A stretch of DNA of 64,000 nt from Candidatus Daviesbacteria bacterium (GTDB taxonomy: Bacteria > Patescibacteriota > Microgenomatia > Daviesbacterales > UBA10151): positions 2,317 to 66,316 of the forward strand of contig JACPEW010000006.1 in the NCBI GenBank assembly GCA_016183305.1. The letters are read 5' to 3'. Positions 616-35,798 of this stretch are shown one piece after another (positions within the stretch are counted from its first letter, which is position 1; every line of letters starts with the position of its first letter). The position numbers were made by a program, and so were the translations under genes. The notes under the pieces were generated by a model. It searched no databases, was not told where the DNA came from, and was given only the letters and a program-made list of their open reading frames with translations.

Positions 616-1290
616 ATGAACACCTTTGGAACAAAAAATAGGATTAATCCCAAGAATATCCTGGGGGGTATGGGCTTTTTTGATGAAACTGGTTTTGAAA
701 AAGAGTCAGCCATGGTCTCTTCTGCAGTAGCCACTGTAGCCTCTGCTTCTAGCCAGGTGGTCAGTGGCTTTTTTGAAGCAGCTATCGGCCTGGGCCAAAA
801 TATCGGCGGAACTGAATCTAAACAGGAAGCAAACGGTAAATTCTCCAAAGGTTCTTTAAATAACTTTAATGATAAAGCCCGCTTTGAACAACTTCAGCAA
901 CAACAAACTGAAACAGAAAAGCAAAGAGCAGAAAAAGATAGAAAAACCATCTTCTTCCAGGCTCTTAAAGAAGACCAGCAAAGGGCTCAACAAGCTAAAG
1001 AAAAAAAGCTGGAAGAAGATGAGATAAATGATATTATTGCCAATTTACCGACAGAGCAAAAAAACAGGTTATTACACTACCAGGCAAGTTATAAGGACAG
1101 AAGTATTTACCAAAAAGCAGAACTTAGAAAGAAGCTGATTGAAGAACAAAAGAAAGCAGAAAAACAACAAAAAGAAGCACCCATCCCAAGTCCGGCTAAA
1201 CAACCTTCTGCTATGGAAGGCGCTTTTGAAGGCAGAAGCGGAGCCCAGGGCAGTGGTACCTCTAATTTATCTGCCCAAGCTGTAGGGTAA
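616..1290 (+). CDS. hypothetical Lys/Glu/Gln-rich (coiled-coil-like) protein
   Basis: 224-aa ORF, low-complexity charged central region; no family recognised. Confidence 0.45.
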   Translation: MNTFGTKNRINPKNILGGMGFFDETGFEKESAMVSSAVATVASASSQVVSGFFEAAIGLGQNIGGTESKQEANGKFSKGSLNNFNDKARFEQLQQQQTETEKQRAEKDRKTIFFQALKEDQQRAQQAKEKKLEEDEINDIIANLPTEQKNRLLHYQASYKDRSIYQKAELRKKLIEEQKKAEKQQKEAPIPSPAKQPSAMEGAFEGRSGAQGSGTSNLSAQAVG

Positions 1291-1908: not shown

Positions 1909-3645
1909 ATGGATAATAAAGATTTAAATAATCTAAGACATTCCTGTGCTCATCTTTTGGCAGCTGCTGTTTTGGAACTGTGGCCAGATACTAAACTGAC
2001 CATTGGTCCTGCTACTCAAGATGGGTTTTATTATGATTTTGAGTTTGTAAAACCCATAACTGAAGATGGCTTACCCAAGATAGAACAGAAGATGAAACAG
2101 CTTTTACCCAGCTGGACCCGTTTTGAACACAGGGAAGTAACAGAACAAGAAGCAAAAGAATTATTTAAAGATAACTCTTATAAACTAGAACTAATTGAGG
2201 AAATAGCACAAAAGAAAGAACCAATTACTCTTTATAAATCAGGAAACTTTGAAGATTTGTGCAGAGGAGGGCATTCTGAAAATCCCAGCAAAGAAATTGG
2301 AGCTTTGAAACTATTATCTATTGCTGGGGCTTATTGGAGGGGATCAGAGAAAAATAAAATGCTTACCAGAATCTATGGCACTTGTTTTCCCACTAGAGAA
2401 GAACTTGATGAGTATCTTAATATGTTGAAAGAAGCTAAAAAAAGAGACCATAGAAAATTAGGAAAAGAACTGGACTTATTTATCTTCTCAGACTTGGTTG
2501 GTCCTGGGCTGCCTTTATTTACCCCTAAAGGCACTATCTTAAGGGAAGAACTGTTTAAATTCTCAGAAAGCTTGCAGCTGGCTAATGGTTATCAAAGAGT
2601 TTGGATTCCCCATATCACTAAGACAGATTTATATAAAAAAAGCGGTCACTGGGATAAATTTGGCGGTGAATTATTCCTGGTTAAAAGCCGGGAAACCAGT
2701 GATCAGCTTGTCCTAAAACCAATGAATTGCCCACATCATGTTCAAATCTATGCTTCCAAACAAAGGAGTTATAAAGAGCTCCCAGTCAGATATATGGAAA
2801 CTACCACCCAGTATAGAGATGAAAAAATGGGTGAGCTGTTAGGTTTATCCAGAGTCAGGTCTATTTCTATTGATGATTCCCATATCTTTTGTACCATGGA
2901 TCAGGTTGAAGAAGAGTTCAGAAAAATCATGGATATGGTCAAAACTATGTATAAAACTTTAGGGATGGAGTTTAAAGCCAGGCTCTCTTTTAGAGATTCC
3001 TCAGATAAGTTTCTGGGTGAGCTTAAAGATTGGCAAAAGGCCCAAGCAATTATTGAACAGGTGGCTAAAAATTTAGGAATTAATTATTTTATTGCTGAAG
3101 GAGAGGCTGCTTTTTATGGTCCTAAAATTGATATTTTAGTTATGGATAGTTTAGGACGCGAGTGGCAATGTGCCACTGAGCAGCTTGATTTTGTCCAACC
3201 TCAAAGGTTTGGCCTAACTTATATTGATGCAGATGGTAGCGAAAAAACTCCATTTATGATCCATAAAGCAATCTTGGGTTCAATAGAAAGATTTCTCTCT
3301 GTTTATATAGAACACACTGGGGGGGCTTTTCCTATTTGGCTTTCGCCTGTACAAGTACAAATTATACCCATTGCTGATAGGCACCAAAAATATGGACAAA
3401 AGTTACTCGAACAATTAAAGTCTGCAAATATTAGATCAGAGATTGATTCAAGAGCAGAAAAAATGCAAGCAAAAATAAGGGATGCCCAACTGCAGAAGAT
3501 CCCTTATATGTTAATTATTGGTGATAGGGAAGAACAAGATAATAAAACAGCTGTTAGAACCAGGGCAGGGCAGGATTTAGGAGCAATAGAGTTTAAAGAA
3601 TTTTTAACAAAAATTAAATCTGAAATTGAGTTTAAATCTTCCTGA
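1909..3645 (+). CDS. thrS: threonyl-tRNA synthetase, lacking the N-terminal TGS domain
   Basis: Starts in editing/SAD region (HSCAHLLAAAV); class II core and C-terminal anticodon-binding domain recognisable by eye. Confidence 0.93.
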   Translation: MDNKDLNNLRHSCAHLLAAAVLELWPDTKLTIGPATQDGFYYDFEFVKPITEDGLPKIEQKMKQLLPSWTRFEHREVTEQEAKELFKDNSYKLELIEEIAQKKEPITLYKSGNFEDLCRGGHSENPSKEIGALKLLSIAGAYWRGSEKNKMLTRIYGTCFPTREELDEYLNMLKEAKKRDHRKLGKELDLFIFSDLVGPGLPLFTPKGTILREELFKFSESLQLANGYQRVWIPHITKTDLYKKSGHWDKFGGELFLVKSRETSDQLVLKPMNCPHHVQIYASKQRSYKELPVRYMETTTQYRDEKMGELLGLSRVRSISIDDSHIFCTMDQVEEEFRKIMDMVKTMYKTLGMEFKARLSFRDSSDKFLGELKDWQKAQAIIEQVAKNLGINYFIAEGEAAFYGPKIDILVMDSLGREWQCATEQLDFVQPQRFGLTYIDADGSEKTPFMIHKAILGSIERFLSVYIEHTGGAFPIWLSPVQVQIIPIADRHQKYGQKLLEQLKSANIRSEIDSRAEKMQAKIRDAQLQKIPYMLIIGDREEQDNKTAVRTRAGQDLGAIEFKEFLTKIKSEIEFKSS

Positions 3646-3740: not shown

Positions 3741-4280
3741 CTGGCCAAGTTCTATCGTTTGAATGAACATATCCAAGCTGAAAAGCTTAGGGTAATTGAT
3801 TCCAAGGGGGAACAATTAGGCATCTTAACTAAAGCAGAAGCTTTAGGAAAAGCTAAGGAATTAGGGCAGGATTTAATAGAAATCGCCCCAAATGCTGACC
3901 CTCCTGTTGCCAGGATAACTGACTTTCAAAAGTTCAGGTATGAGGAAAATAAAAAGGAAAGGGCATCAAGGAAAGGTAATTCTGCAGGAGAATTAAAAGA
4001 ACTTTGGCTATCTCCCAGGATAGCAGAACATGATCTTCAGGTTAGGTTAAATAGAACTGAAGAATTTTTGAAAACAGGCCATAAAGTAAAATTAACAGTT
4101 AAGTTTAAAGGCAGGGAAATGGCTCACCAGGAAATAGGGTACCGTGTCTTGCAAGAAGCTTTAACCCTCTTGGGTGACAAAGTTGCGGTAGAAAAAGATG
4201 CCAAAATGGAGGGAAGAAAGCTGTCAATGATTGTAGCAAAAAACAAAGGAGTAAAATCAAATGCCGAAACAGAAAACTAA
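3741..4280 (+). CDS. infC: translation initiation factor IF-3 (probable CUG start)
   Basis: RLNEHIQAEKLRVID...PPVARITDFQKFRYE match IF-3. Frame is open back to CTG 3741, 9 nt after AAGGAG 3726-3731; the track start is TTG 3759. Confidence 0.85.
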   Translation: MAKFYRLNEHIQAEKLRVIDSKGEQLGILTKAEALGKAKELGQDLIEIAPNADPPVARITDFQKFRYEENKKERASRKGNSAGELKELWLSPRIAEHDLQVRLNRTEEFLKTGHKVKLTVKFKGREMAHQEIGYRVLQEALTLLGDKVAVEKDAKMEGRKLSMIVAKNKGVKSNAETEN

Positions 4281-5562: not shown

Positions 5563-6603
5563 GTGGAAGAAAAAATTTCTCAAATTCAAACTGAATATTT
5601 AGAACAAATCCAGCAAGCTCAAAGTTTAAAAGAGCTGGATGAGATTTTTTTAGGGCTATTTGGTAAGAAAGGCCAGCTTGATTTATTACCAAAAGAGTTT
5701 GGCAAACTTTCAATAGAGGAAAGGAAGAAAGTTGGGCCTTTATTCAATTCTGCTAAGCAGAATTTAGAGCAAGCTATTGAGAGAAAAAGAGGGGAAGTCC
5801 GCGGAGAAAGTTACAAAAAGCTTGCAAACGAAAAGCTTGATCTGTCTGATACTAAATTAATAACAAGGAAAGGCCATCTCCATCCTGTTACCCGGTTAGA
5901 AAACGGGGTTGTAACTTTATTTAAAAAACTAGGTTTTACCCAATACGGTGCTCCTCATATTGACAGCGAAGAATATAATTTTGAACTCTTAAATATCCCG
6001 CAAGGCCACCCAGCCAGGGATTTATGGGATACTCTATATATAGACCCACATAACTTAAAAGTCAGTCCAGGAGAATTACTGCTTAGAACTCATACCTCAA
6101 ATGCCCAAGTTAGATTAATGAAGGAATTTAAGCCTCCTATCAGAATGATGATTATTGACCGCTGTTTTAGATATGAAAATGTTGATGCCAGACACGAGCA
6201 TACCTTGGACCAATTTGAAATTGTTTATATAGACAAAGGTGTTAGTATGGCTAATTTGCAGTATTTATCAGAGTATTTTTTTCAAGGCATCTTAGGCAAG
6301 GATATAAAAGCAAGGCTAAGACCAAAATATTACCCTTTTGTTGAACCAGGAGCAGGGGTGGATGGTCTTTGTATTTTCTGTAAAGGTAAAGGCTGTAAGG
6401 TTTGTGGAGGAATAGGCTGGTTAGAACTGGCAGGAGCAGGTATGATTCACCCACAGGTTTTAAGAAATGGGGGGATCGACCCAAATGTTTATTCCGGAAT
6501 TGCCTGGGGCGCAGGCCCGGAAAGAATGGCCATGTTGAAATTCGGTATAGAAAATATCCGCTCATTTAAAAGTGGTGATCTAAAAATATTGGAGAAATTT
6601 TGA
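5563..6603 (+). CDS. pheS: phenylalanyl-tRNA synthetase alpha subunit
   Basis: GHPARD, FRYENVDARHEH, CxxC-x4-CxxC knuckle, GAGMIHPQVL; GTG start. Confidence 0.93.
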   Translation: MEEKISQIQTEYLEQIQQAQSLKELDEIFLGLFGKKGQLDLLPKEFGKLSIEERKKVGPLFNSAKQNLEQAIERKRGEVRGESYKKLANEKLDLSDTKLITRKGHLHPVTRLENGVVTLFKKLGFTQYGAPHIDSEEYNFELLNIPQGHPARDLWDTLYIDPHNLKVSPGELLLRTHTSNAQVRLMKEFKPPIRMMIIDRCFRYENVDARHEHTLDQFEIVYIDKGVSMANLQYLSEYFFQGILGKDIKARLRPKYYPFVEPGAGVDGLCIFCKGKGCKVCGGIGWLELAGAGMIHPQVLRNGGIDPNVYSGIAWGAGPERMAMLKFGIENIRSFKSGDLKILEKF

Positions 6604-6687: not shown

Positions 6688-8328
6688 ATGAAAGTATCAA
6701 TAAATTGGTTAAAAGAATTAGTTGATTTAAAAATATCCATTGAAGAAGTTATTAGGCTGTTACCTCTTAGAACTATTGGCCTTAAAGAAGTAACCCCAGA
6801 TTATATTGAGCTGGATATGAAAGGTTATAACAGGGCAGACCTTTTATCCTTAAGAGGAGTGGCTTATGAAATAGCAGCTATAACCAATTCAGAAATTAAA
6901 TTTGAAGAAGAAAAACAATTTGTATGGGAAGAAAATAATTTAACCAAAACTAAAGTAACTGTGGAAAATAAATATCTAGCACCACTTTATTGTATTGCAA
7001 GAATAGAAAACCTTAAAGTTGAGGAGTCAAATGAAACATGGGTAAAAAGACTGAACGATTCAGGCATTAGAGCTGTAAATAATATAGCTGATGTTACTAA
7101 TCTAATAATGGTGGAGTTTGGACAACCAATGCATGCTTTTGATGCTGCCCAGGTAGCTGATGAGGCTATAATTGTTAAAGCAGCTAAAAATGGGGAAGAA
7201 TTAACGACTCTAGATGGAAAAGCAAGAAAGCTTACTCCTGAAGATTTGTTAATTACTGATCCTCAAAAAGCTTTAGGATTGGCTGGAGTAATGGGAGGCA
7301 AAAATTCAGAGGTTACAGAGGAAACTTCTGCTATTTTACTAGAAGCTGCTATCTTTGACTCAAAGACTTTAAGGAAAACCTCTACCAAATTAGGACTTGT
7401 ATCTGAAGCCGGCAAAAGGTTTTACCATGGCCTGACCAAACAAAGACTTTTCCAAGCTTTAAACAAAGCTATAAAAATGTATGAGGAAATTGGCGGTAGA
7501 TTAACTGCTTTAACAATTGTAGATAATCTAAACCAGCAGTCTATTACTTTAGACTTAACTCAAAAGAAAACTAACTCTCTTATTGGAATAGAAATTCCAG
7601 CTAAGCAAGTTGAAAAACATTTGGCAGCTTTAAGGTTTAAACTAGCTTCCCACATCGGAAGTGGGAGTGTAGTTTGGGAAGTGACTGTTCCATACTGGAG
7701 ACTGGATATAGAAATTGAGGAAGATTTAATTGAAGAAGTAACCAGGATGTATGGCTATGAAAAGATTCCAGCCAAGGCTTTGAACACAAATATACCAATC
7801 ATATCTCAAAATCTCTTTTTTGACCTGCTGGAGAGGCTTAAACAGGCATTTTCTCAGGCTGGTCTGACAGAAGTCCAAACCTATTCTTATTATTCCTCTC
7901 AAGTGATTAATAATTTAGGATTAAGGATTAATGATTTAATAAAAATAGCTAACCCAATATCATCTGAAACCGAATATTTAAGGGATAATCTCTGGCCAAA
8001 TCTTTTAGAAGTAACTGCTAAAAATACTAGGAATGGGACTGCTGATGCTGCTGTATTTGAAATAGGCAAAGTGTATAAGATACAAGATGGTTTACCACAA
8101 GAAAGCTACCACTTAAGCATTGCCTTAAGCAATGGTACAACCAATCCTCTGCAAGAGCTTAACCAGATAGCCCAAAAATTAAACCTTCAACTGAAGGATC
8201 AATTAACTGGTGAATACTTTCACCCAATAAGACATATTGAGGGAATAGCTGAAGTCCACCCAAGAATTGTTAATAAATTTAAAGTAGAACAAAGAATAGC
8301 CGTTTTAGAGTTGGATCTTTCTAGTTAA
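6688..8328 (+). CDS. pheT: phenylalanyl-tRNA synthetase beta subunit, minimal form
   Basis: MKVSINWLKELV start, B3/4 and B5 regions present. At 546 aa it lacks the OB-fold tRNA-binding insert and the C-terminal anticodon-binding domain of long bacterial PheT. Confidence 0.88.
   Translation: MKVSINWLKELVDLKISIEEVIRLLPLRTIGLKEVTPDYIELDMKGYNRADLLSLRGVAYEIAAITNSEIKFEEEKQFVWEENNLTKTKVTVENKYLAPLYCIARIENLKVEESNETWVKRLNDSGIRAVNNIADVTNLIMVEFGQPMHAFDAAQVADEAIIVKAAKNGEELTTLDGKARKLTPEDLLITDPQKALGLAGVMGGKNSEVTEETSAILLEAAIFDSKTLRKTSTKLGLVSEAGKRFYHGLTKQRLFQALNKAIKMYEEIGGRLTALTIVDNLNQQSITLDLTQKKTNSLIGIEIPAKQVEKHLAALRFKLASHIGSGSVVWEVTVPYWRLDIEIEEDLIEEVTRMYGYEKIPAKALNTNIPIISQNLFFDLLERLKQAFSQAGLTEVQTYSYYSSQVINNLGLRINDLIKIANPISSETEYLRDNLWPNLLEVTAKNTRNGTADAAVFEIGKVYKIQDGLPQESYHLSIALSNGTTNPLQELNQIAQKLNLQLKDQLTGEYFHPIRHIEGIAEVHPRIVNKFKVEQRIAVLELDLSS
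7642..7672 (+). repeat. R1 REP hairpin inside pheT
   Basis: CTAGCTTCCCAC ATCGGAA GTGGGAGTGTAG; translated in-frame as ASHIGSGS. Confidence 0.8.
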
Positions 8329-15698: not shown

Positions 15699-15972
15699 CC
15701 CATGTATACTTATCAAGGTTTGTAGATAAATCCCCAGGCCCTTTAGCCTTTAATTGCTCTGCCATCTGAGCTACTTTTAGTAATGCCAGAGCAGATCCCT
15801 GCTGTTTTTGTTTACTCTTTAGTTCCTCAAATTCCTTAAAAGTTTCCAGACTCACAATTACTGCCTGAGGTTCCTTTTTACTAACAACCTGTCTCGGCTG
15901 TTTAGTTTTCTTAACCTCTTCAAAGACTTTCTTGGGGCTTCTAGATAAATCTCTTATATTGACTGTCAACAT
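15691..15972 (-). CDS. Phd/YefM-type antitoxin
   Basis: N-terminal VNIRDLSRSPKKVFEEV...AVIVSLETFKEFEE pattern; overlaps the PIN gene. Confidence 0.6.
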   Translation of the reverse strand: MLTVNIRDLSRSPKKVFEEVKKTKQPRQVVSKKEPQAVIVSLETFKEFEELKSKQKQQGSALALLKVAQMAEQLKAKGPGDLSTNLDKYTWDE

Positions 15973-16040
15973 ATAAACATATTATGACATGGGTCAAAAT
16001 TTGTCAATACTTTTGTCTAACAATGTGAGTGACAAAGCCG

Positions 16041-16115
16041 TTTGTAAATCTCCAGTTCCTTAAAAGATAATCCGGGTATAATGGTATGACTAACGTTTAC
16101 CAGGTGGACTCAAAA
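16041..16115 (-). repeat. R4 inter-cassette repeat, copy C
   Basis: Invariant core 16088-16103; lies directly after the stop of the 16117 ORF. Confidence 0.75.
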
Positions 16116-16116
16116 A

Positions 16117-16533
16117 TTAGCGGGACTCAAATTTAGAGGATCTTTTGACTAGTTTGGCCACAAAAACTATTTGTCTAAGTTGCCCATCTTCACCCTCAAT
16201 CTCATTTAAACCAGATAACCTTTGATATTCCCTTAAATAATCTGATAACCCTTCTTTTAATTCTTTTTGTTCTGATTTTAAAGATTTTAATTTATTAGCC
16301 AAATCAGCGGTATCTGGCCTTTTTAAAATTTCTTTTTTAGTATTGGCCCTAATCCTAACTGCTTCTTTAGCTGCTTTATCATGCTCTTGATAAGATTCAT
16401 CATTAGTAAAAATATCATTAACCATATCCCTATATTTGGTAATTTCTTCCTGTAAAGAATCAATTTGGGAAGTATGGGTTTTAATCATCTCCTCAATTCT
16501 AACCAGTAAAACCGCATCATTTCCATCATCCAT
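16117..16533 (-). CDS. hypothetical coiled-coil protein
   Basis: ORF trimmed to ATG 16533 (MDDGND...); heptad-like charged sequence. Confidence 0.4.
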   Translation of the reverse strand: MDDGNDAVLLVRIEEMIKTHTSQIDSLQEEITKYRDMVNDIFTNDESYQEHDKAAKEAVRIRANTKKEILKRPDTADLANKLKSLKSEQKELKEGLSDYLREYQRLSGLNEIEGEDGQLRQIVFVAKLVKRSSKFESR

Positions 16534-16584
16534 ATTAGAACAACTATAATATCCAGAAATTCTCCAAAAAAGCAAGGCTTGATT

Positions 16585-18348
16585 TTAGCTCTTCATCCAC
16601 CTAGCCCTAGGGGTTTGGACTCTGCCAAATTTCTGGCCTAAGCGTAAAACTATGCTTAGTAAAATATAATAAGCTTTCCCATGATAATGTTCTGCTGCTT
16701 TACTTAAATGCTCATAAGCTTTTTGCTGACCAATTTTAGAAGTAGAACCTCCATGATAATGGATAAACTGACTAGCAGGCACAAAATAAATTAGTACTCC
16801 AAATTGCTTTAATCTTCTGCAGTATTCTATATCCTCAAAAAAGATAAAGGTTCCTTCATCCAACAGCCCTACTTTGTTAATTATCTTTCTTGGAATCATA
16901 AAACAGGCCATTACCAAACCTTCCACTTTACTAGGTTTTTCCCCTTGAGGAGCATACATAAAATAAGCTCCCTTCTTTAACAGGAAATATTCCTTAAAAG
17001 CCCCAAAGATAGTAGGCAGGTGGAAAACACTATCCTGCTCACTCATGTCCTCAAAAAATAACTTACCTCCTAAAACTGCCTTGCCTTTAAACTCATCTTC
17101 TGTTTTAACTAATTCAGTAAGACTATCCTTTAAAACTTTAATATCTGAATTAAGCATTAAATAATACTCACCTAAAGAATATTTAATAGTTTTGTTATAA
17201 CCTTTGGAAAATCCTTCATTGTCTTGGTTTTGTAAGTATTTAATCTTAGGCAAAAACTCTTTGATGGCTTCTTTACAAGGATCAATTTGACCATTATCTA
17301 AGACAATTACTTCCATATTCTTGGGATCAAACCCAGACCCTTGCTTAAAAATACTCTCCAGTAATTTCTTAGTTAAATCAGCAGTGTTGTAATTAACAAT
17401 CCCAATAGATAACTTCAGGGGATACTCTACGTTCCCACTTGACGAGTGGGAAGCTAGGTTTCCTTGGCCTGTAATGCCTAAATAAAAATCTAAAACTCCT
17501 TTTCTTTGGGCTGGCCTGCCAAAAATAAACAGTTTTAAAGCTTCCCTTAATAAAGCAAACTTAGTCCTATCTCTTCCATACTTCATCCCAAAAATTAATC
17601 TATTCCTGGTATGGTAATAATCAGTAATAGGGGAGCCTATACCAGTTGACTGGGAAACTTTGTGGTAAATAGAAGTTTTTCCATTATAGTAAACTTTAAA
17701 TTCAGCATTTTTTGCTCTTTTATTAAAATCACTATCCTCAAAATAGAGAAAGTATCTCTCATCTAATCCTCCTAATACCTCTTTTTTAATCATCACACAA
17801 GCTCCAGAAAAAATCTCAGTTTCCTCAACAGCATCATATTGACCCTTATCCACCTCATCAATACCCCTGTGAATATTCCCGATATTATCCCAATCAAATT
17901 TTCCTCCAGCAAACCACAATACTTTACCTATCTCTTCTTTTTTATATCTATCCTTATGAAACTCAAACCCAGGAGCAAAATAAATCTTAGGAGAAACTAA
18001 ACCAATTTTAGAATCTGATTCTAAAGTATTAACTAAGTCTGTAACTAAGTTAGTATCTTTTATCAAACAATCATTATTAACCAGCAAAAAATAATCAGCT
18101 CCCCAAATTTGAGCATAGTCTATACCCTTGTTATAACCTCCAGCAAAACCTAAATTTTGTCCAGTTTGTACTATATTTACCTCTGGAAAAGCTTTATGGA
18201 TAGCAGAAACGCTCCCATCAGACGAAGCATTATCCACCACGATTACCTGTTGCCTGTAACCTTTTGCCTGTAACCTTTTTAATGATTCCAAAAACTCTAT
18301 CGTGTCTTTCTTGCCACTATAATTAAGTGTAATTATTGCAATTTTCAT
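16585..18348 (-). CDS. tandem double GT2 glycosyltransferase (two GT-A domains in one ORF)
   Basis: Two copies of the ...IITLNYSG/..SIGIVNYN.., DNASSDGS/DNGQ, and xED motif pattern, joined by a linker that contains an R1 REP. Confidence 0.8.
   Translation of the reverse strand: MKIAIITLNYSGKKDTIEFLESLKRLQAKGYRQQVIVVDNASSDGSVSAIHKAFPEVNIVQTGQNLGFAGGYNKGIDYAQIWGADYFLLVNNDCLIKDTNLVTDLVNTLESDSKIGLVSPKIYFAPGFEFHKDRYKKEEIGKVLWFAGGKFDWDNIGNIHRGIDEVDKGQYDAVEETEIFSGACVMIKKEVLGGLDERYFLYFEDSDFNKRAKNAEFKVYYNGKTSIYHKVSQSTGIGSPITDYYHTRNRLIFGMKYGRDRTKFALLREALKLFIFGRPAQRKGVLDFYLGITGQGNLASHSSSGNVEYPLKLSIGIVNYNTADLTKKLLESIFKQGSGFDPKNMEVIVLDNGQIDPCKEAIKEFLPKIKYLQNQDNEGFSKGYNKTIKYSLGEYYLMLNSDIKVLKDSLTELVKTEDEFKGKAVLGGKLFFEDMSEQDSVFHLPTIFGAFKEYFLLKKGAYFMYAPQGEKPSKVEGLVMACFMIPRKIINKVGLLDEGTFIFFEDIEYCRRLKQFGVLIYFVPASQFIHYHGGSTSKIGQQKAYEHLSKAAEHYHGKAYYILLSIVLRLGQKFGRVQTPRARWMKS
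17427..17457 (-). repeat. R1 REP hairpin (loop variant TTGACGA) in GT2-GT2 linker
   Basis: TTCCCAC TTGACGA GTGGGAA GCTAG; reads ASHSSSGN on the gene strand. Confidence 0.8.
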
Positions 18349-19417: not shown

Positions 19418-20467
19418 TTAAGCCTTAGTTTTTATCCTAAGCTTCCTATAATTTTCTAATAATTTAATTCCTCCTAAGACAAAATCCCTAAACAGGGGAG
19501 GGTACTTTTTATAGTAGTGTTTCTTATAAAAAATCTTCATAGCAGTGACTCCATAAATTGCAGTTTCTAATTTAGTTTCTTTTGGAACAGTAGTTAATGC
19601 TGTAGTCCAAAGCCCGGAAGAAGAACCTTTGTAATGGATTATTTTTACCTCCGGGTAATAATAAATCTTCCAGCTTTTTTCTTTTAAAGAGTAACAAAAT
19701 TCTATATCCTCACCATTCCAAAAATAATCTGTATTCCACCATCTTATTTGTTCTCCAGCAATTTTCCTTACCATCAAAAAAGCCCCTGTTAAGGAGTCAA
19801 TCTCATGGGCTTTATTAATATCTAAGTAAGAAGCTGTATAGCCAGAAAAAAGAGAGGATTTAGGAAAGATTTTAGACAGCCCGCTAAAGTAAGCAAAAGA
19901 ATTCCAGGGAGTAGGGAAACCTCTATGACAGGAGTAATCTAATCTTCCATCAGGCAGCTCAACCCTGCAAGTTAAGGCTCCAATATCAGGATCTGACAGT
20001 AACTTTTCTAAGGATTTTTGAATAGCATGATCAACAATAATAGTATCTGGATTTAAAAACAAAACCACTGGAGCTTTAGCAAATTTTACCCCCACATTAT
20101 TCCCAGCAGAGAAACCTAAGTTCTCCTTGTTTTCAATAAGCTGTACCACCCTATCACTCTTAATTTCTTCTTTGTCATACTGAGCTCCATTTTTGTCATT
20201 CTGGTTTGTCCAAAATCTTCCCTTTCCCCTGTCATTCCCGCCCGCTCCGCGGAGCGGGCGAAGGCGGGAATCTATACCAATAACTCTATATTTTCCCTTC
20301 ACAGCTTCTACAGACCCGTCAGAGGAAGCATTATCCACCACAATTACCTGCCACCTGTCTAACTTATCCTTACTTTGAAAAATTGAGTCTAAACATTTAA
20401 GCAATAAATCCTTAACATTGTAGTTAAGGATAATAATAGAAAGCTCTGGAGTCTTTAAATTTGTCAT
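19418..20467 (-). CDS. GT2 family glycosyltransferase carrying an R2-derived insertion
   Basis: LSIIILNYN, DNASSDGS, ENLGFSAGNN, EDIEFC; ~35-aa low-complexity insert between them. Confidence 0.8.
   Translation of the reverse strand: MTNLKTPELSIIILNYNVKDLLLKCLDSIFQSKDKLDRWQVIVVDNASSDGSVEAVKGKYRVIGIDSRLRPLRGAGGNDRGKGRFWTNQNDKNGAQYDKEEIKSDRVVQLIENKENLGFSAGNNVGVKFAKAPVVLFLNPDTIIVDHAIQKSLEKLLSDPDIGALTCRVELPDGRLDYSCHRGFPTPWNSFAYFSGLSKIFPKSSLFSGYTASYLDINKAHEIDSLTGAFLMVRKIAGEQIRWWNTDYFWNGEDIEFCYSLKEKSWKIYYYPEVKIIHYKGSSSGLWTTALTTVPKETKLETAIYGVTAMKIFYKKHYYKKYPPLFRDFVLGGIKLLENYRKLRIKTKA
20174..20272 (+). repeat. three tandem R2 units inside the GT2 CDS
   Basis: GTCATACTGAGC.., GTCATTCTGG..AAAATC, GTCATTCCCGCCCGCTCCGCGGAGCGGGCGAAGGCGGGAATC; translated as ...SRLRPLRGAGGNDRGKGRFWTNQNDKNGAQYDK... 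Confidence 0.75.
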
Positions 20468-24860: not shown

Positions 24861-25787
24861 TTATGTCATCACAGCTGCTGCTGTTGCTATTTCTAAAATT
24901 TCTTTGGTAATACCAGCCTGTCTGGTCTGATTAAAAGTTAACTTCAAATCATCCAAAAGCTCTAAAGCATTATCTGTAGCATTTTGCATAGCTATCATTC
25001 TAGCAGATTGCTCAGAAGCTTTAGTCTCAAGCAAAGCTTGGTAAATTTTAGTTTCAATATGATGAAGTAAAATAAAATCCAATAAAACATCCGGGTCAGG
25101 TTCAAAAAGGAATTCTTTATTGTCATTCTGAGCGACTGGCTCGCTCCGCGGAGCGAGCGAAGAATCTTTAGACTTGTCCTTATAATCTTGAGATCCTTCA
25201 TCTCCCAGATTCCGGATAACAGACGCTAAATCTACAGGTAGAAGCTGGACTAATTTTGCTTGCTGCCTTAGGGTGGAAACAAATTCTGGATAAACAATTA
25301 ATACTTGTCCTACTTCACCAGCATTAAAAGCTTCTATCACTAATCTGGATAATTGTTTGGCCTGCCTGAAAGTAACTTTTTCAGGATTTTCAAAATCAGC
25401 TTTTAGATTTTTACTAGTCCTGGCCACATATGCCCTGCCTTTTTTACCCAGGGTGTAATAAACAGTATCTGCAGGCAAATTTGAAGAAAAAATTGTCCTG
25501 GTTAAATTAGTATTTAAAGCCCCAACCAAGCCTTTATCAGTTGAGAGTAAAATTACCCCGGAGGTTTTTATGCTTTTGGGAGATAATAAAAGATGAGACT
25601 GTATATTAATTCTAGGTAAAAGCCTTAATAAGGCTTGGCCTAAATTTTGGGTGTATGGCCTGCCGGAAAGAGCCTGGTTTTGTGCCCTTTTCATCTTAGT
25701 AGCAGCCACCATCTGCATAGCCTTAGTTATTTGGCTTGTATTCTTAATAGATTTTATTCTTCTTCTTAATTCTCTAGTACTAGCCAT
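24861..25787 (-). CDS. atpG: F1 ATP synthase gamma subunit with R2-derived insertion
   Basis: MASTRELRRRIKSIKNTSQITKAMQMVAATK N-terminus, ...SARMIAMQNATDNA...ITKEILEI C-terminus. Confidence 0.9.
   Translation of the reverse strand: MASTRELRRRIKSIKNTSQITKAMQMVAATKMKRAQNQALSGRPYTQNLGQALLRLLPRINIQSHLLLSPKSIKTSGVILLSTDKGLVGALNTNLTRTIFSSNLPADTVYYTLGKKGRAYVARTSKNLKADFENPEKVTFRQAKQLSRLVIEAFNAGEVGQVLIVYPEFVSTLRQQAKLVQLLPVDLASVIRNLGDEGSQDYKDKSKDSSLAPRSEPVAQNDNKEFLFEPDPDVLLDFILLHHIETKIYQALLETKASEQSARMIAMQNATDNALELLDDLKLTFNQTRQAGITKEILEIATAAAVMT
25122..25166 (+). repeat. R2 unit inside atpG CDS (45 nt, in-frame)
   Basis: GTCATTCTGAGCGACTG-GCTCGCTCCGCGGAGCGAGC-GAAGAATC; reads KDSSLAPRSEPVAQNDN on the gene strand. 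Confidence 0.8.
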
Positions 25788-29298: not shown

Positions 29299-29404
29299 GA
29301 TTATATTATCCTAGATTAAAGGGTTATTTTACAAGAAGCTTTTAAAATCCGCCGATAGCAGATTGACATCACCTGAACATAGGAAAAATAACTACCTTCC
29401 AACA

Positions 29405-29435
29405 CTACCTTCCCACATCGGATGTGGGAAGGTAG
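29405..29435 (+). repeat. R1 REP hairpin (31-nt near-perfect palindrome)
   Basis: CTACCTTCCCACATC G GATGTGGGAAGGTAG. Confidence 0.85.
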
Positions 29436-29436
29436 T

Positions 29437-30114
29437 TTAATCATCAGCGTCAATTAACAATTTAGAAAGAGCAGGGCTATCAACTTCAGTTTCCTCCACA
29501 AAAGACTGATAAGTTAAATTAGGGTTAGTTTTAGAAAAGTAAGAAGAGATAAGATTTGTATCACAAAATGGATGCGGTTCTCCTGATAAATAATAAGGAT
29601 ATGAGGAATATGGATAAAATCTATGTTCCCACATCGGAAGTGGGAAGCTGTTTCTATGGATATATTTTGATAAATGAAGTAAGTACTCATCTGTCTCAAT
29701 TAGCTTTGCCTTAAATCCACCCTGAAATAAAGAACCTACTCTCTTGTGTCTGGTATTGAAATACCGAGTGTAACTATCTGCCACTTTCCTTAAAAATTCT
29801 GATATACCTCCATCAGCCAATTGTTGAATTAGCAAATGAAAATGATTCGGCATTAAACAGTAACAATATATCCTCACCAGCTCTGTTTGATTATCTATCT
29901 TTTTAAGCTTTATCACACCTCTTCTGAAATCTGAAAGCTTCATTGGAACCGGAGATTTACGGTAATAGTCCAAAGTTTCTAAAAACCTTAGGTGGTCCCA
30001 TCTGTCCATAAAGGTCTTCCTTTTCTCAACACCGCGGTTATAAATATGGTAAAAGCTGCCACTAATAAATGGGGGATTAACCACGCTTCTATTGTCTAAT
30101 CCGTATTCCCACAC
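29437..30114 (-). CDS. REP-associated tyrosine transposase (RAYT; IS200/IS605 TnpA-like Y1 HUH enzyme)
   Basis: YHIYNRG, HUH motif LMPNHFHLLI, Tyr motif SKYIHRN; 225 aa. Confidence 0.75.
   Translation of the reverse strand: MWEYGLDNRSVVNPPFISGSFYHIYNRGVEKRKTFMDRWDHLRFLETLDYYRKSPVPMKLSDFRRGVIKLKKIDNQTELVRIYCYCLMPNHFHLLIQQLADGGISEFLRKVADSYTRYFNTRHKRVGSLFQGGFKAKLIETDEYLLHLSKYIHRNSFPLPMWEHRFYPYSSYPYYLSGEPHPFCDTNLISSYFSKTNPNLTYQSFVEETEVDSPALSKLLIDADD
29621..29650 (+). repeat. R1 REP hairpin inside the RAYT CDS
   Basis: TTCCCAC ATCGGAA GTGGGAA GCTG; reads SFPLPMWE immediately after YIHRN. Confidence 0.8.
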
Positions 30115-30131
30115 GTCAAGTGGGAAGGTAG
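30106..30131 (+). repeat. R1 REP hairpin (loop variant ACGTCAA)
   Basis: TTCCCAC ACGTCAA GTGGGAA GGTAG overlapping the RAYT start. Confidence 0.8.
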
Positions 30132-33704: not shown

Positions 33705-35798
33705 ATGAATTTAAAAACTCCTTTATCCAGTTTAACTGGAATTGGCCTAGGGCTTAATTTTAAGCTTAAAAGGTTGAACTTAATTACCATTGAGGATTTA
33801 GTCTATTATTTTCCTTTCAGGTATGAAGATTTTTCTAATAATACCTCTGCTTTAGAAGCTAAAATAGGGGAGTCTGTTACCCTGCAGGGTGAAATTTGGT
33901 CTATTCAAAACATTTATACCAGGTCCAGGAAAATTATTACTAAAGCTATTTTTAATGATGGCACCTCACCTATAGAGCTAACCTGGTTTAACTCATCCTG
34001 GCTAACAAAACAAATTAAAACAGGGGACAGACTGCAAATCTCAGGAAAGATCAGTAAATATAAAAACAAGCTTTCCATCATAGCCCCGCGATGGGAAAGG
34101 CTTGACAGCGAAAAACAGCTTCCCACATCGGAAGTGGGAACGCAGATTCATACAGGCAGATTGGTACCTGTTTATCCTGAAACAGAAGGTTTATCTTCTA
34201 AATGGCTAAGAACTAAAATTTCCCAAACCTTACCTCATATTTTAAATCAAATAGAAGATTCCTTACCTGATGATATTAGAAAAGCAATGTTGCCTTTAAC
34301 AGAGGCTATACAGCAAGTCCATTTTCCCAAAAACTGGCAAGAGGCAGAAAAAGCCAGGGAAAGGTTAGGCTTTGATGAGCTGTTTTTTATCTCCTTAGCT
34401 ACTCAAAAAGCCAGGTTAAATTGGCAACAGAAACCTTTGGTTAAACCCTTAAAAATAAATTCTACAAAATTAAACCAGTTTATAAACAAGCTGCCCTTTA
34501 AATTAACTGCTGCCCAAGAAAAAGTCTTACAAGATGTAATAGCTGATTTAAAGAAAAACCAGCCAATGAACAGGTTAATCCAAGGTGAAGTAGGATCTGG
34601 AAAAACAGTAGTGGCTGCAATTATTGCTTACCTAACTTATCTTAATGGCTTAAAAACACTATTCATGGCTCCGACTGAAATCCTAGCTTTCCAACATTTT
34701 GAGACTCTTAAGAAATTCCTTGAACCATTTGGAATTACAATGGGGATATATACAGGGAGCAAAAAGGATTTAGTGACTAGTGACAAGAGTCAAGAATCAA
34801 GAAAGAAACCCCCTCACTTGACTCTAGCGGCTAGCGGCCACCCCGATACTATAATTGGCACTCATGCCTTACTTTCACCCAAATTAAACCTGGAAGATAC
34901 CGGGCTAATTATAGTAGATGAGCAACAACGCTTTGGAGTGGGACAAAGAACTGTACTTAGATCCAAAGCCAGAGTCCCACACTTTTTAACCATGACTGCT
35001 ACCCCTATCCCTAGGACTATTGCCTTGACCATTTATGGAGATTTAGATATGTCTGTAATCGATGAGTTGCCAAGAGGACGCCGGATGGTCAAAACCTATG
35101 TGGTGCCAGAAAAGAAAAGAGCTGATTCATATAAATTTATTGCCAAAAAAGTAAAAGAGGGCGGTCAAGCCTATATCATCACTCCTTTAATAGAACCCTC
35201 AGAAACTTTAGCCACTGTTAAAGCAGTTAAGGTAGAGTTTGAGAACTTAAAAAAGGTTTTCCCTGATTTAAAACTAGGCTTGCTTCATGGCAGGATGAAA
35301 GGAGCAGAAAAAGCTCAAGCAATCAAAAGCTTCCGTTTGGGACAAACAGATATTTTAGTTTCTACTTCTGTAGTTGAAGTTGGAATGGATAATCCCAATG
35401 CCACAATTATAGTTATTGAAGGAGCAGAAAGGTTTGGCTTGGCCCAGCTTCATCAACTAAGAGGCAGGGTAGGAAGAGGCTATAAAGAGTCTTTCTGTTT
35501 GCTTTATACCTCTAATTCTTCAATTGATGAGGGCAGAAGACTAAAGTATCTAGAAACTACTTTTGATGGTTTAAGATTGGCAGAGCTGGATTTAAAAATC
35601 AGAGGTTCAGGACAAATCTTTGGTACTGCCCAGTCAGGCAGGTTTGAGCTTAAAATAGCTTCTTTTTCTAACCTAAGCTTACTAGAAAAAACCAAAGATG
35701 CTGCTTTTAAACTACTCTCTTCAGATCCAGGTCTTGACAAATACCCTGTAATCAAGGCAAAATTACAGGATATCGCATCAGAAGTGATGCCTGATTAA
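33705..35798 (+). CDS. recG: ATP-dependent DNA helicase RecG
   Basis: Wedge/OB N-terminus, GEVGSGKT, DEQQRFGV, TATPIPRT, HGRM, QLRGRVGRG; start set at ATG 33705. Confidence 0.92.
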   Translation: MNLKTPLSSLTGIGLGLNFKLKRLNLITIEDLVYYFPFRYEDFSNNTSALEAKIGESVTLQGEIWSIQNIYTRSRKIITKAIFNDGTSPIELTWFNSSWLTKQIKTGDRLQISGKISKYKNKLSIIAPRWERLDSEKQLPTSEVGTQIHTGRLVPVYPETEGLSSKWLRTKISQTLPHILNQIEDSLPDDIRKAMLPLTEAIQQVHFPKNWQEAEKARERLGFDELFFISLATQKARLNWQQKPLVKPLKINSTKLNQFINKLPFKLTAAQEKVLQDVIADLKKNQPMNRLIQGEVGSGKTVVAAIIAYLTYLNGLKTLFMAPTEILAFQHFETLKKFLEPFGITMGIYTGSKKDLVTSDKSQESRKKPPHLTLAASGHPDTIIGTHALLSPKLNLEDTGLIIVDEQQRFGVGQRTVLRSKARVPHFLTMTATPIPRTIALTIYGDLDMSVIDELPRGRRMVKTYVVPEKKRADSYKFIAKKVKEGGQAYIITPLIEPSETLATVKAVKVEFENLKKVFPDLKLGLLHGRMKGAEKAQAIKSFRLGQTDILVSTSVVEVGMDNPNATIIVIEGAERFGLAQLHQLRGRVGRGYKESFCLLYTSNSSIDEGRRLKYLETTFDGLRLAELDLKIRGSGQIFGTAQSGRFELKIASFSNLSLLEKTKDAAFKLLSSDPGLDKYPVIKAKLQDIASEVMPD
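34116..34145 (+). repeat. R1 REP hairpin inside recG
   Basis: CAGC TTCCCAC ATCGGAA GTGGGAA CGCAG; reads QLPTSEVGTQ. Confidence 0.8.
34773..34841 (+). repeat. R3 heptamer arrays inside recG
   Basis: GTGACTA GTGACAA GAGTCAA GAATCAA GAAAGAA ... CTTGACT CTAGCGG CTAGCGG CCAC; reads VTSDKSQESRKKPPHLTLAASGH. Confidence 0.7.

Follow-up and report, generated by a model that had tools for sequence, protein, structure and literature searches.

A 64,000-nucleotide stretch of the Candidatus Daviesbacteria contig JACPEW010000006.1 (assembly GCA_016183305.1, positions 2,317 to 66,316 of the forward strand; hereafter the window) carries the gene of a protein related to the REP-associated tyrosine transposases (RAYTs; REP, repetitive extragenic palindrome) together with eight copies of a 31-nt hairpin. 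We consider it probable that this locus is a REPtron-like unit of Ca. Daviesbacteria, composed of a domesticated RAYT-type HUH/Y1 enzyme acting on single-stranded DNA (ssDNA) and its cognate hairpin. The enzyme has the fold and the motifs of the RAYTs, the hairpin brackets its gene across genomes, and a further paralogue is accompanied by a different palindrome. Copies away from the RAYT gene lie inside other genes and leave their reading frames open, their stems are constrained at the nucleotide level, and one protein loop has been occupied independently in two phases.

An original prediction made from the sequence alone had described a minus-strand open reading frame (ORF) with the motifs NHFHLL and YIHRN, and the ORF and both motifs were found at this locus (Table 1). 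The longest mechanical ORF extends over 29437..30114 from a GTG at 30114 to a TAA stop codon at 29437..29439. Most homologues comprise 215 aa and begin with M-[VIL]-N-P-P-F, aligning with another GTG at 30084. Therefore, judged by its homologues, the gene most likely spans 29437..30084. The upstream hairpin, thought to overlap the start, does overlap that of the mechanical ORF but lies 16 nt upstream of the likely start at 30084. Residues Y141, H143 and N145 are nearly invariant in an alignment of 89 diverse relatives.

A hidden Markov model search against Pfam PF01797 (Y1_Tnp), proposed as a check of the prediction, gave a significant match of 37 bits (cut-off 23, E = 4e-9) in support of the Y1/HUH identity. 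Homology searches yielded more than 7,700 scored matches, the best 120 of which share 62-87% identity with the protein; the named homologues among the close matches belong to Ca. Daviesbacteria, Levybacteria, Microgenomates or Patescibacteria. When cluster representatives were searched exhaustively, 20,672 relatives were obtained at E ≤ 1e-3, nearly all of them 205-250 aa long. When a profile of the 89 relatives was compared with the PDB sequences, E. coli TnpA_REP (4ER8) was the top match (E = 9e-4), closely followed by the TnpA protein of ISDra2. The alignment with 4ER8 runs from the HUH strand through the YIxxNP motif to a W-P-F-S-T-F / Y-P-W-S-S-Y segment.

The predicted structure points in the same direction. 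An AlphaFold2 model based on the 89-sequence alignment reached a pLDDT of 92.8 and a pTM of 0.89 and shows the element order strand, helices, two strands, helix, strand and a helix bearing the tyrosine. It superseded a first model from 22 close homologues (pLDDT 59), whose fold matches were not significant. The best Foldseek match was again 4ER8, deposited as "REP associated tyrosine transposase bound to a REP hairpin" (E = 1e-6, 190 columns). The TnpA proteins of IS608 and ISDra2 (2e-5, about 135-150 columns) and IS200 TnpA ranked behind it. The protein is thus nearer to TnpA_REP than to the TnpA proteins of insertion sequences (IS), including a C-terminal extension after the Tyr helix, by a small margin over the IS enzymes. 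The PF01797 match and the best fold match uphold the proposed RAYT identity and make the protein, as modelled, a remote member of the RAYT-like branch of the Y1 HUH enzymes.

The conserved hairpin unit is CTA-NN-TTCCCAC-N7-GTGGGAA-NN-TAG. Around a variable loop of 7 nt it has a 7-bp stem, then a 2x2 internal mismatch and, on the outside, a CTA/TAG clamp. Seven exact matches to TTCCCAC-N7-GTGGGAA are found in the window, compared with none in 100 dinucleotide-preserving shuffles. The list of hairpins in the original prediction was real in substance, yet its copy at 7647 has one stem mismatch (GTGGGAG), and an exact copy at 59811 had been overlooked. Calculated DNA folding energies of the window hairpins range from -6 to -16 kcal/mol. 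The 7-bp stem hardly varies among 48 unique copies, and each base of the TAG tag is kept in 37-44 of them. A G precedes the TAG in 23 of the 48, and a C follows the 5' CTA, equivalent to GTAG on the other strand, in 22. The NN positions pair less often than expected from base composition; therefore they form a conserved 2x2 bubble, and extra base-pairing at these positions was dropped as an explanation. CTAGC...CGTAG and CTACG...GCTAG, the most frequent forms, are each the reverse complement of the other; the element is therefore oriented and carries one GTAG tag. As an imperfect palindrome of 31 nt with a terminal tag, it fits the size (20-40 nt) and shape of GTAG-tagged REPs.

Doublets of the kind called BIMEs (bacterial interspersed mosaic elements) or REPINs (REP doublets), for which a check had been suggested, are absent from the window: neighbouring copies are 216 and 480 nt apart at the RAYT locus and otherwise at least 2.1 kb. 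At gathering thresholds, Rfam reported three tRNAs only and no RNA family at any hairpin. A terminator or a CRISPR reading was rejected, as copies lie inside ORFs and have neither a T-run nor an array.

Table 1. Coordinates of the RAYT gene, its motifs and the hairpin copies in the window. L-numbers denote loci of other genomes (see text).
Feature	Position	Strand	Remarks
RAYT-type Y1/HUH gene	29437..30084	-	215 aa, GTG start, TAA stop; start most likely, from 215-aa homologues
HUH motif N-H-F-H-L-L	29830..29847	-	From translation; both His invariant in the 89-sequence alignment
Catalytic-Tyr motif Y-I-H-R-N	29650..29664	-	From translation; aligns with YIYINP of 4ER8
Hairpin downstream of RAYT, CTACCTTCCCACATCGGATGTGGGAAGGTAG	29405..29435		1 nt past the RAYT stop; -16 kcal/mol; perfect 15-bp stem over 29404..29436; homologues have a copy at the same place
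Partial left-arm copy CTACCTTCCAACA	29392..29404		Adjoins the downstream hairpin
Hairpin inside RAYT	29621..29651	-	S-F-P-L-P-M-W-E-H directly after YIHRN
Hairpin upstream of RAYT	30101..30131		TTCCCACACGTCAAGTGGGAAGGTAG at 30106..30131; same position in L014/L018, L015, L037, L038 and L039
Hairpin in pheT (B5 domain, residues 319-329)	7642..7672	+	L-A-S-H-I-G-S-G-S-V-V
Hairpin in two-domain GT2 gene (inter-domain linker, residues 298-308)	17427..17457	-	L-A-S-H-S-S-S-G-N-V-E
Hairpin in recG (wedge domain, residues 156-166)	34115..34145	+	Other phase, Q-L-P-T-S-E-V-G-T-Q
Hairpin in MurC part of murC-murD fusion (residues 59-69)	59806..59836	+	L-A-S-H-L-K-G-G-N-V-D; orthologous site filled in L031/L034
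Hairpin in MurD part of murC-murD fusion (residues 762-772)	61915..61945	+	L-H-S-H-I-G-S-G-K-L-V; orthologous site filled in L025/L026
Probable variant hairpin in GT2 gene 19418..20467	20235..20270	-	TTCCCGC/GCGGGAA stem, 22-nt loop with GC-rich palindrome

The association of gene and hairpin was followed in loci of other genomes, numbered here with the prefix L. Scans of 185,579 species genomes and of metagenome contigs of the JGI (Joint Genome Institute) with a 20-base-specified pattern gave 10 loci from species genomes and 26 from the JGI contigs, most of them on Daviesbacteria-like contigs of 34-42% GC; a scan of viral contigs found nothing. Matches outside the candidate phyla radiation (CPR), namely L009/L016 (Desulfobacteraceae), L017 and L035, were left out as other lineages. 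Confinement of the hairpin to the window would have spoken against the original prediction, but the hairpin is present in other Daviesbacteria genomes and metagenome contigs. The presumed CPR-like host was likewise borne out, since PheT and RecG of the window are 100% identical to Ca. Daviesbacteria proteins.

As predicted, both flanks of the RAYT gene in the window carry the hairpin. Some RAYT homologues have terminal extensions (MWEY..., MTSGNT..., ...ECIPTSDVGR) that are translated hairpins, which suggested family-wide bracketing. Consistent with this, TTCCCAC-N7-GTGGGAA lies within about 30 nt both upstream and downstream of the RAYT gene in L014/L018, L037 (Daviesbacteria), L038 (Levybacteria) and L039/L040 (Patescibacteria), so that bracketed homologues were seen in four Microgenomates genomes besides the window. 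In L015, where the contig is cut inside the RAYT gene, the upstream hairpin is present. Read in gene orientation, the upstream loops of the window, L037 and L038 follow TTGAC[GA][TA] and the downstream loops [AT]T[TC]C[CG]AT; L039 has the loop CTGGAAG on both flanks. As to an inverted orientation of the flanking repeats, the stems are self-complementary, the loops of the two copies bear no relation to each other, and the internal mismatch shows no consistent link between its orientation and the loop.

A search for RAYT paralogues had also been suggested; only one RAYT is found within the 64 kb, and distant paralogues with other palindromes occur elsewhere. The paralogue of L038 (3197..3859) has the palindrome ACACCC(C)GGGGTGT on both flanks (3150..3164 and 3906..3918) and a third copy at 19585. 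In L041, a paralogue of 37-38% identity (15966..16688) is accompanied by the palindrome CCCACCCC-WG-GGGTGGG, also written CCCACCCC-GGGGTGGG, both ahead of the ORF and within its 3' end. Paralogues that carry palindromes of their own are the pattern predicted by cognate enzyme-substrate pairs.

The RAYT gene is probably domesticated. The gene order recG, two ORFs, RAYT and atp operon is common to the window and L037. Between the two, RAYT shares 81% identity, compared with 82% for AtpA, 77% for AtpD, 73% for RecG, 63% for AtpG and 49% for AtpF. Conservation as high as that of the ATP synthase alpha subunit argues that the cell needs the RAYT or cannot easily lose it. Of three related genomes that were compared, two, the window and L037, keep RAYT in the same position. 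The third, L041, has a recG with 92% DNA identity to that of L037. When L041 (7074..7157) is aligned to L037 (9525..10770), about 1.2 kb between the atp operon and the neighbouring ORF is missing; the corresponding stretch of L037 and the window contains a 102-aa ORF as well as RAYT with its two flanking hairpins.

The hairpin inside the RAYT gene had been taken as a possible hit of the enzyme by its own substrate. Instead, it is an ancient feature: the segment N-[SA]-F-P-L-x-x-W-E is kept family-wide, and in the DNA of L014, L037 and L038 the stems are kept and the loops differ. It sits where the wider family has NP and 12 residues before Y-x-x-S-S-Y.

The term REP implies extragenic repeats, which does not describe the scattered copies. 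All five non-RAYT copies of the window reside in housekeeping genes, namely pheT, a GT2 gene, recG and, twice, murC-murD, and keep the frame open. The host genes of the hairpins are conserved full-length orthologues. Four of the five read L-[AH]-S-H-x-x-[SG]-G-x-[VL]. The copy in recG uses another phase and has no in-frame stop because its outer CTA/TAG is altered to ACA/CAG. By our own tally, the CPR loci contain 33 non-RAYT copies, of which about 26 (~79%) are intragenic and seven are intergenic or at gene ends; with a coding fraction of 0.895 in the window, genes are not avoided at all. In the scanned loci the copies lie mostly in long ORFs, and the dominant phase gives L-[ARHP]-S-H-x-x-S-G-[NK]-[VL]. 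Of nine copies detected with no constraint placed on the flanks, seven are in phase 0 (p = 0.008). Judging from their open frames, the hairpin segments are probably translated and form a short loop of the protein. The same host sites are found filled in different species, including two sites in PheT, ATP synthase gamma, the N-terminus of MurC and the C-terminus of MurD. In L036, the CTAG of a hairpin forms the stop codon of the upstream ORF.

Two of the host genes deserve a remark. The murC-murD fusion is one ORF of 881 aa (59632..62277) with two sets of Mur ligase domains in Pfam. The PheT of the window (6688..8328) comprises 546 aa and aligns to residues 160-601 of the ~795-aa bacterial PheT, without stretches at both ends. 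Partial look-alikes of the left hairpin arm precede the MurC and MurD hairpins (59791..59805, CATAGTCCCCAG; 61903..61914, CTTTCCAAA). The orthologues in L031 and L025 lack these look-alikes, which may be remnants of earlier copies.

What is conserved in the intragenic copies is the DNA. In filled orthologous sites, identical residues are encoded by the same codon in 82 of 87 stem comparisons and in 82 of 151 flank comparisons, i.e. 94% versus 54% (p = 1e-11). The loops vary freely between orthologous copies. The probable variant hairpin in the GT2 gene 19418..20467, at which the Pfam GT2 domain match is split, provides an example of stem maintenance. The orthologous site of L037 reads TCCCCAC-TCGTCAA-GTGGGAA, and the stem of the window represents a compensatory A-T to G-C change.

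The individual sites turn over. Among the 120 closest PheT orthologues, site 1 is filled in about 20 and site 2 in four. Others have short loops, decayed forms (LTSRSSDGNAV, LASHLTSRNVV), expanded loops or peptides encoded by other palindromes, two of which were confirmed in the DNA. On a neighbour-joining tree, site 1 requires 16 parsimony changes for 20 filled taxa, compared with a mean of 18.7 after shuffling of the labels. Hence, the presence of the hairpin is scattered over the orthologue tree. The RecG site of the window is filled in phase 1 in at least ten orthologues and in phase 0 in at least four others and therefore was occupied independently. In the 92%-identical recG pair, L041 has the hairpin allele found in the window and L037 a (CTACCAA)x4 tandem repeat of nearly equal length. 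On the minus strand of L037 this repeat (~6250..6290) is read as NLPTTNYQLPT and lies exactly at the hairpin site of the relatives. If whole loop alleles are swapped by homologous recombination, the patchy distribution and the similar lengths might both follow from it.

A mechanism can be proposed by analogy with E. coli TnpA_REP. The enzyme would bind the hairpin extruded on single-stranded DNA and would then cut and rejoin beside it. Such activity would seed and maintain hairpin copies elsewhere in the genome. The genome is about 90% coding, and the copies that have persisted are located within genes, where they occupy variable parts of housekeeping proteins. In-frame stops bar one of the three phases unless the TAG tag mutates, and most surviving copies are in the phase giving the small, polar peptide L-A-S-H-x-x-S-G-N-V. 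From the analogy with TnpA_REP we infer that it is the RAYT which mobilises or maintains the hairpins, by a single-strand mechanism.

Several observations weigh against a REPtron-like unit. The sole NCBIfam match of the protein, the equivalog NF047646 (REP_Tyr_transpos), reached 42.1 bits at a cut-off of 80, which places the protein by its sequence in a distant RAYT-like clade and not among the textbook RAYTs. A single-sequence search of the PDB sequences gave no match. Filled and unfilled alleles differ in length by 0 aa in AtpG, -4 in the DNA polymerase III delta' subunit and about -2 to +2 in RAYT, and the filled alleles gain +4 to +8 aa at PheT site 1 and +4 to +11 aa in RecG. These differences are unlike the +31 to +33 nt of a simple insertion. 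Clean 11-codon insertions were ruled out by the variable net length in AtpG, delta', RAYT and RecG, so that a copying or gene-conversion mechanism is possible. The window has eight copies in 64 kb, and the density elsewhere is modest, as other genomes have 1 to 2 non-RAYT copies in each 20 kb. Furthermore, L041 has an intact hairpin in recG and no RAYT at the syntenic site. Finally, we infer the translation of the hairpin segments from their open frames only.

The strongest competitor, in our view still unlikely, is a host signal that spreads independently of the RAYT, for instance a DNA-uptake-type sequence or the binding site of a protein that acts on the chromosome or in replication. Point mutation and biased recombination would have placed it in tolerant coding segments, with the RAYT doing no more than sharing or exploiting the motif. 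The near-equal length of many filled and unfilled alleles (AtpG, delta' and RAYT) and the persistence of the hairpin in the recG of L041 would be expected of such a signal. The same holds for the strong frame preference and the location in poorly conserved protein segments, both of which are reported for uptake sequences (PMC2346458). On the other hand, all RAYT homologues examined are bracketed and the paralogues have their own, different palindromes, as a cognate enzyme-substrate pair would predict. One RecG loop holds the hairpin in two phases, hairpin alleles exceed the shortest ones by 4 to 11 aa, and the loops vary freely, with only the paired stem fixed. Known uptake sequences are also far denser than the hairpin, which occurs about once per 8 kb or less.

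An active insertion sequence of the IS200/IS605 type, with the flanking hairpins as its left and right ends and the scattered ones as solo ends or footprints, is very unlikely. The Y1/HUH fold is shared, the IS608 and ISDra2 TnpA structures are the next-best matches, the loop classes differ upstream and downstream of the gene (TTGACxx versus ATCCGAT/ATTCCAT in gene orientation) as left and right ends would, and the gene is absent from the syntenic site of L041. Yet the gene is present in a single copy in 64 kb and without a same-clade paralogue in any locus, the synteny with the atp operon is kept, its 62-87% protein identity across species matches that of core genes, and no tnpB-like neighbour was found. 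Moreover, the best structural match is a RAYT, with its C-terminal extension, and the dispersed units are complete hairpins, not the ends of a longer element. Selection of the peptide L-A-S-H-x-x-S-G-N-V at the protein level, with the DNA palindrome as a by-product, would explain why the same peptide appears in many proteins in one frame. It hardly comes into consideration in view of the excess of identical codons in the stems at identical amino acids (94% versus 54%). The use of two other frames (P-T-x-x-V-G in RecG, F-P-L-x-x-W-E in RAYT), the intergenic copies and the functionally unrelated host proteins also contradict it. A chance palindrome or an assembly artefact is suggested by nothing but the short core length and can be practically dismissed: the shuffles gave none of the seven exact copies, and the 20-base-specified pattern recurs in assemblies that several projects produced independently.

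Most descriptions of REP/RAYT systems come from Proteobacteria, in which the repeats lie between genes. The E. coli REPtron resembles the locus described here in many respects. TnpA_REP (4ER8) is also an HUH enzyme with a single catalytic Tyr and a C-terminal extension, and its gene is bracketed by a dispersed short palindrome. E. coli REPs are 20-40 nt long and have a terminal [CG]TAG tag and a conserved stem mismatch. The present gene may be single-copy and vertically inherited like that of E. coli: it occurs once in the 64 kb and has synteny and core-gene-level conservation with L037, and it is missing from the syntenic site of L041. In contrast, the two proteins share only 14% identity in the structural alignment and differ in length (215 aa here, 165 aa in E. 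coli). Unlike the E. coli system, the present one has a conserved hairpin inside the gene, mostly intragenic in-frame repeats, no doublets in the window and a CPR host. IS200/IS605 elements such as IS608 and ISDra2 have in common with it the Y1 HUH fold, differing flank loops and, probably, the recognition of subterminal hairpins; here, however, no second copy of the gene was found in the window or the other loci, tnpB is absent and the hairpin alone is dispersed.

In-frame palindromes are also known from Rickettsia. The RPE-1 type of these Rickettsia palindromic elements (RPEs) is 100-150 bp long and has no known transposase. Here, by comparison, one frame dominates, the unit comprises 31 nt and a probable cognate RAYT is present. 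As in the present case, genes with RPEs or intragenic REPs stay functional (Di Nocera et al. 2013, PMC3733652). Opitutus, Rickettsia and further genomes have a minority of intragenic in-frame REPs, some of which are located in genes for tRNA synthetases and DNA repair (PMC3733652). Whereas intragenic copies in those genomes are the minority of a mostly extragenic family, they make up five of five scattered copies in our window and about 79% overall. In the REPIN/RAYT systems of Pseudomonas (Bertels and Rainey, PMC3116915), a single-copy RAYT, which the present one may be as well, goes with one repeat family and other paralogues with other families, and, as here, repeats persist at orthologous positions across species. 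The present element differs from Pseudomonas REPINs as a singlet hairpin in coding sequence, not an inverted doublet. In the literature searched we found no paper that links RAYT or REPIN with CPR/Patescibacteria and, within these limits, this is the first RAYT/REP system described from the CPR. The remote clade, the conserved copy within the gene, singlets without doublets, the mostly coding location, the dominant frame and the repeated reuse of loops set it apart from the known systems.

Other palindromes were encountered in the same genes. A GC-rich palindrome with the core GCTCCGCGGAGC occurs at 20244..20255, in the loop of the variant hairpin of the GT2 gene 19418..20467, and at 25143..25154, in a variable insert of atpG read as SLAPRSEP; both copies are inside genes, and 0.25 exact copies were expected by chance in the window. 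A CACCTC[CG]GAGGTG family is found in frame in Daviesbacteria genes of L001 (538..577), L007 (7692..7704) and L033 (1223..1235). The doublet in L001 encodes HLRGEKMRLHLGG, and in many orthologues of PheT and RecG the loop is filled by the same type of peptide (HLEGEKMRLHLRGG, HPGGEEMRLHPRGG, HLEGVKAHLRGV).

Two of the scanned genomes merit comment. L001, L004, L005 and L008 (contigs CAZYPW0100000xx) come from a metagenome-assembled genome titled 'uncultured Gammaproteobacteria' with 36-38% GC and five hairpin copies. Its atp operon is 59-98% identical to that of the window, and the label looks wrong. The Desulfobacteraceae loci L009/L016 contain at 802..909 an inverted doublet with the TTCCCAC/GTGGGAA stem, 77 nt from start to start and with a 46-nt spacer. 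The first copy has a GTAG tag, and each GC-rich loop is the reverse complement of the other. The arrangement, although from an unrelated phylum, resembles a classical REPIN; no RAYT was present within the 8 and 14.4 kb of DNA examined.

A wider scenario, which we put forward as speculative and rather doubtful, is that in Daviesbacteria and related Microgenomates several RAYT paralogues each drive their own palindrome family, mainly in essential genes, and repeatedly rewrite the same variable loops, or that the hairpins are retained for a host role on ssDNA or mRNA. The families counted in the former case are TTCCCAC/GTGGGAA, CACCTC-S-GAGGTG doublets, ACACCC-GGGGTGT and GCTCCGCGGAGC. If it were true, RAYT/REP would be a lineage-wide, frame-preserving editor of protein loops that causes little net change in length; in the latter case, the retained hairpins would serve the host in a genome with almost no intergenic space.

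In summary, the repeats of the probable REPtron-like unit of Ca. Daviesbacteria lie in coding sequence, and each copy thereby has around it a conserved gene that can be aligned. This permits a comparison by residue, across hundreds of orthologues, of alleles that are filled, unfilled, decayed or re-occupied, and the choice of targets, the rate of turnover and selection on the stem become directly measurable. Annotators should be aware that such protein segments are repeat-derived. The system may explain a share of the lineage-specific short insertions in the housekeeping proteins of ultra-small bacteria.

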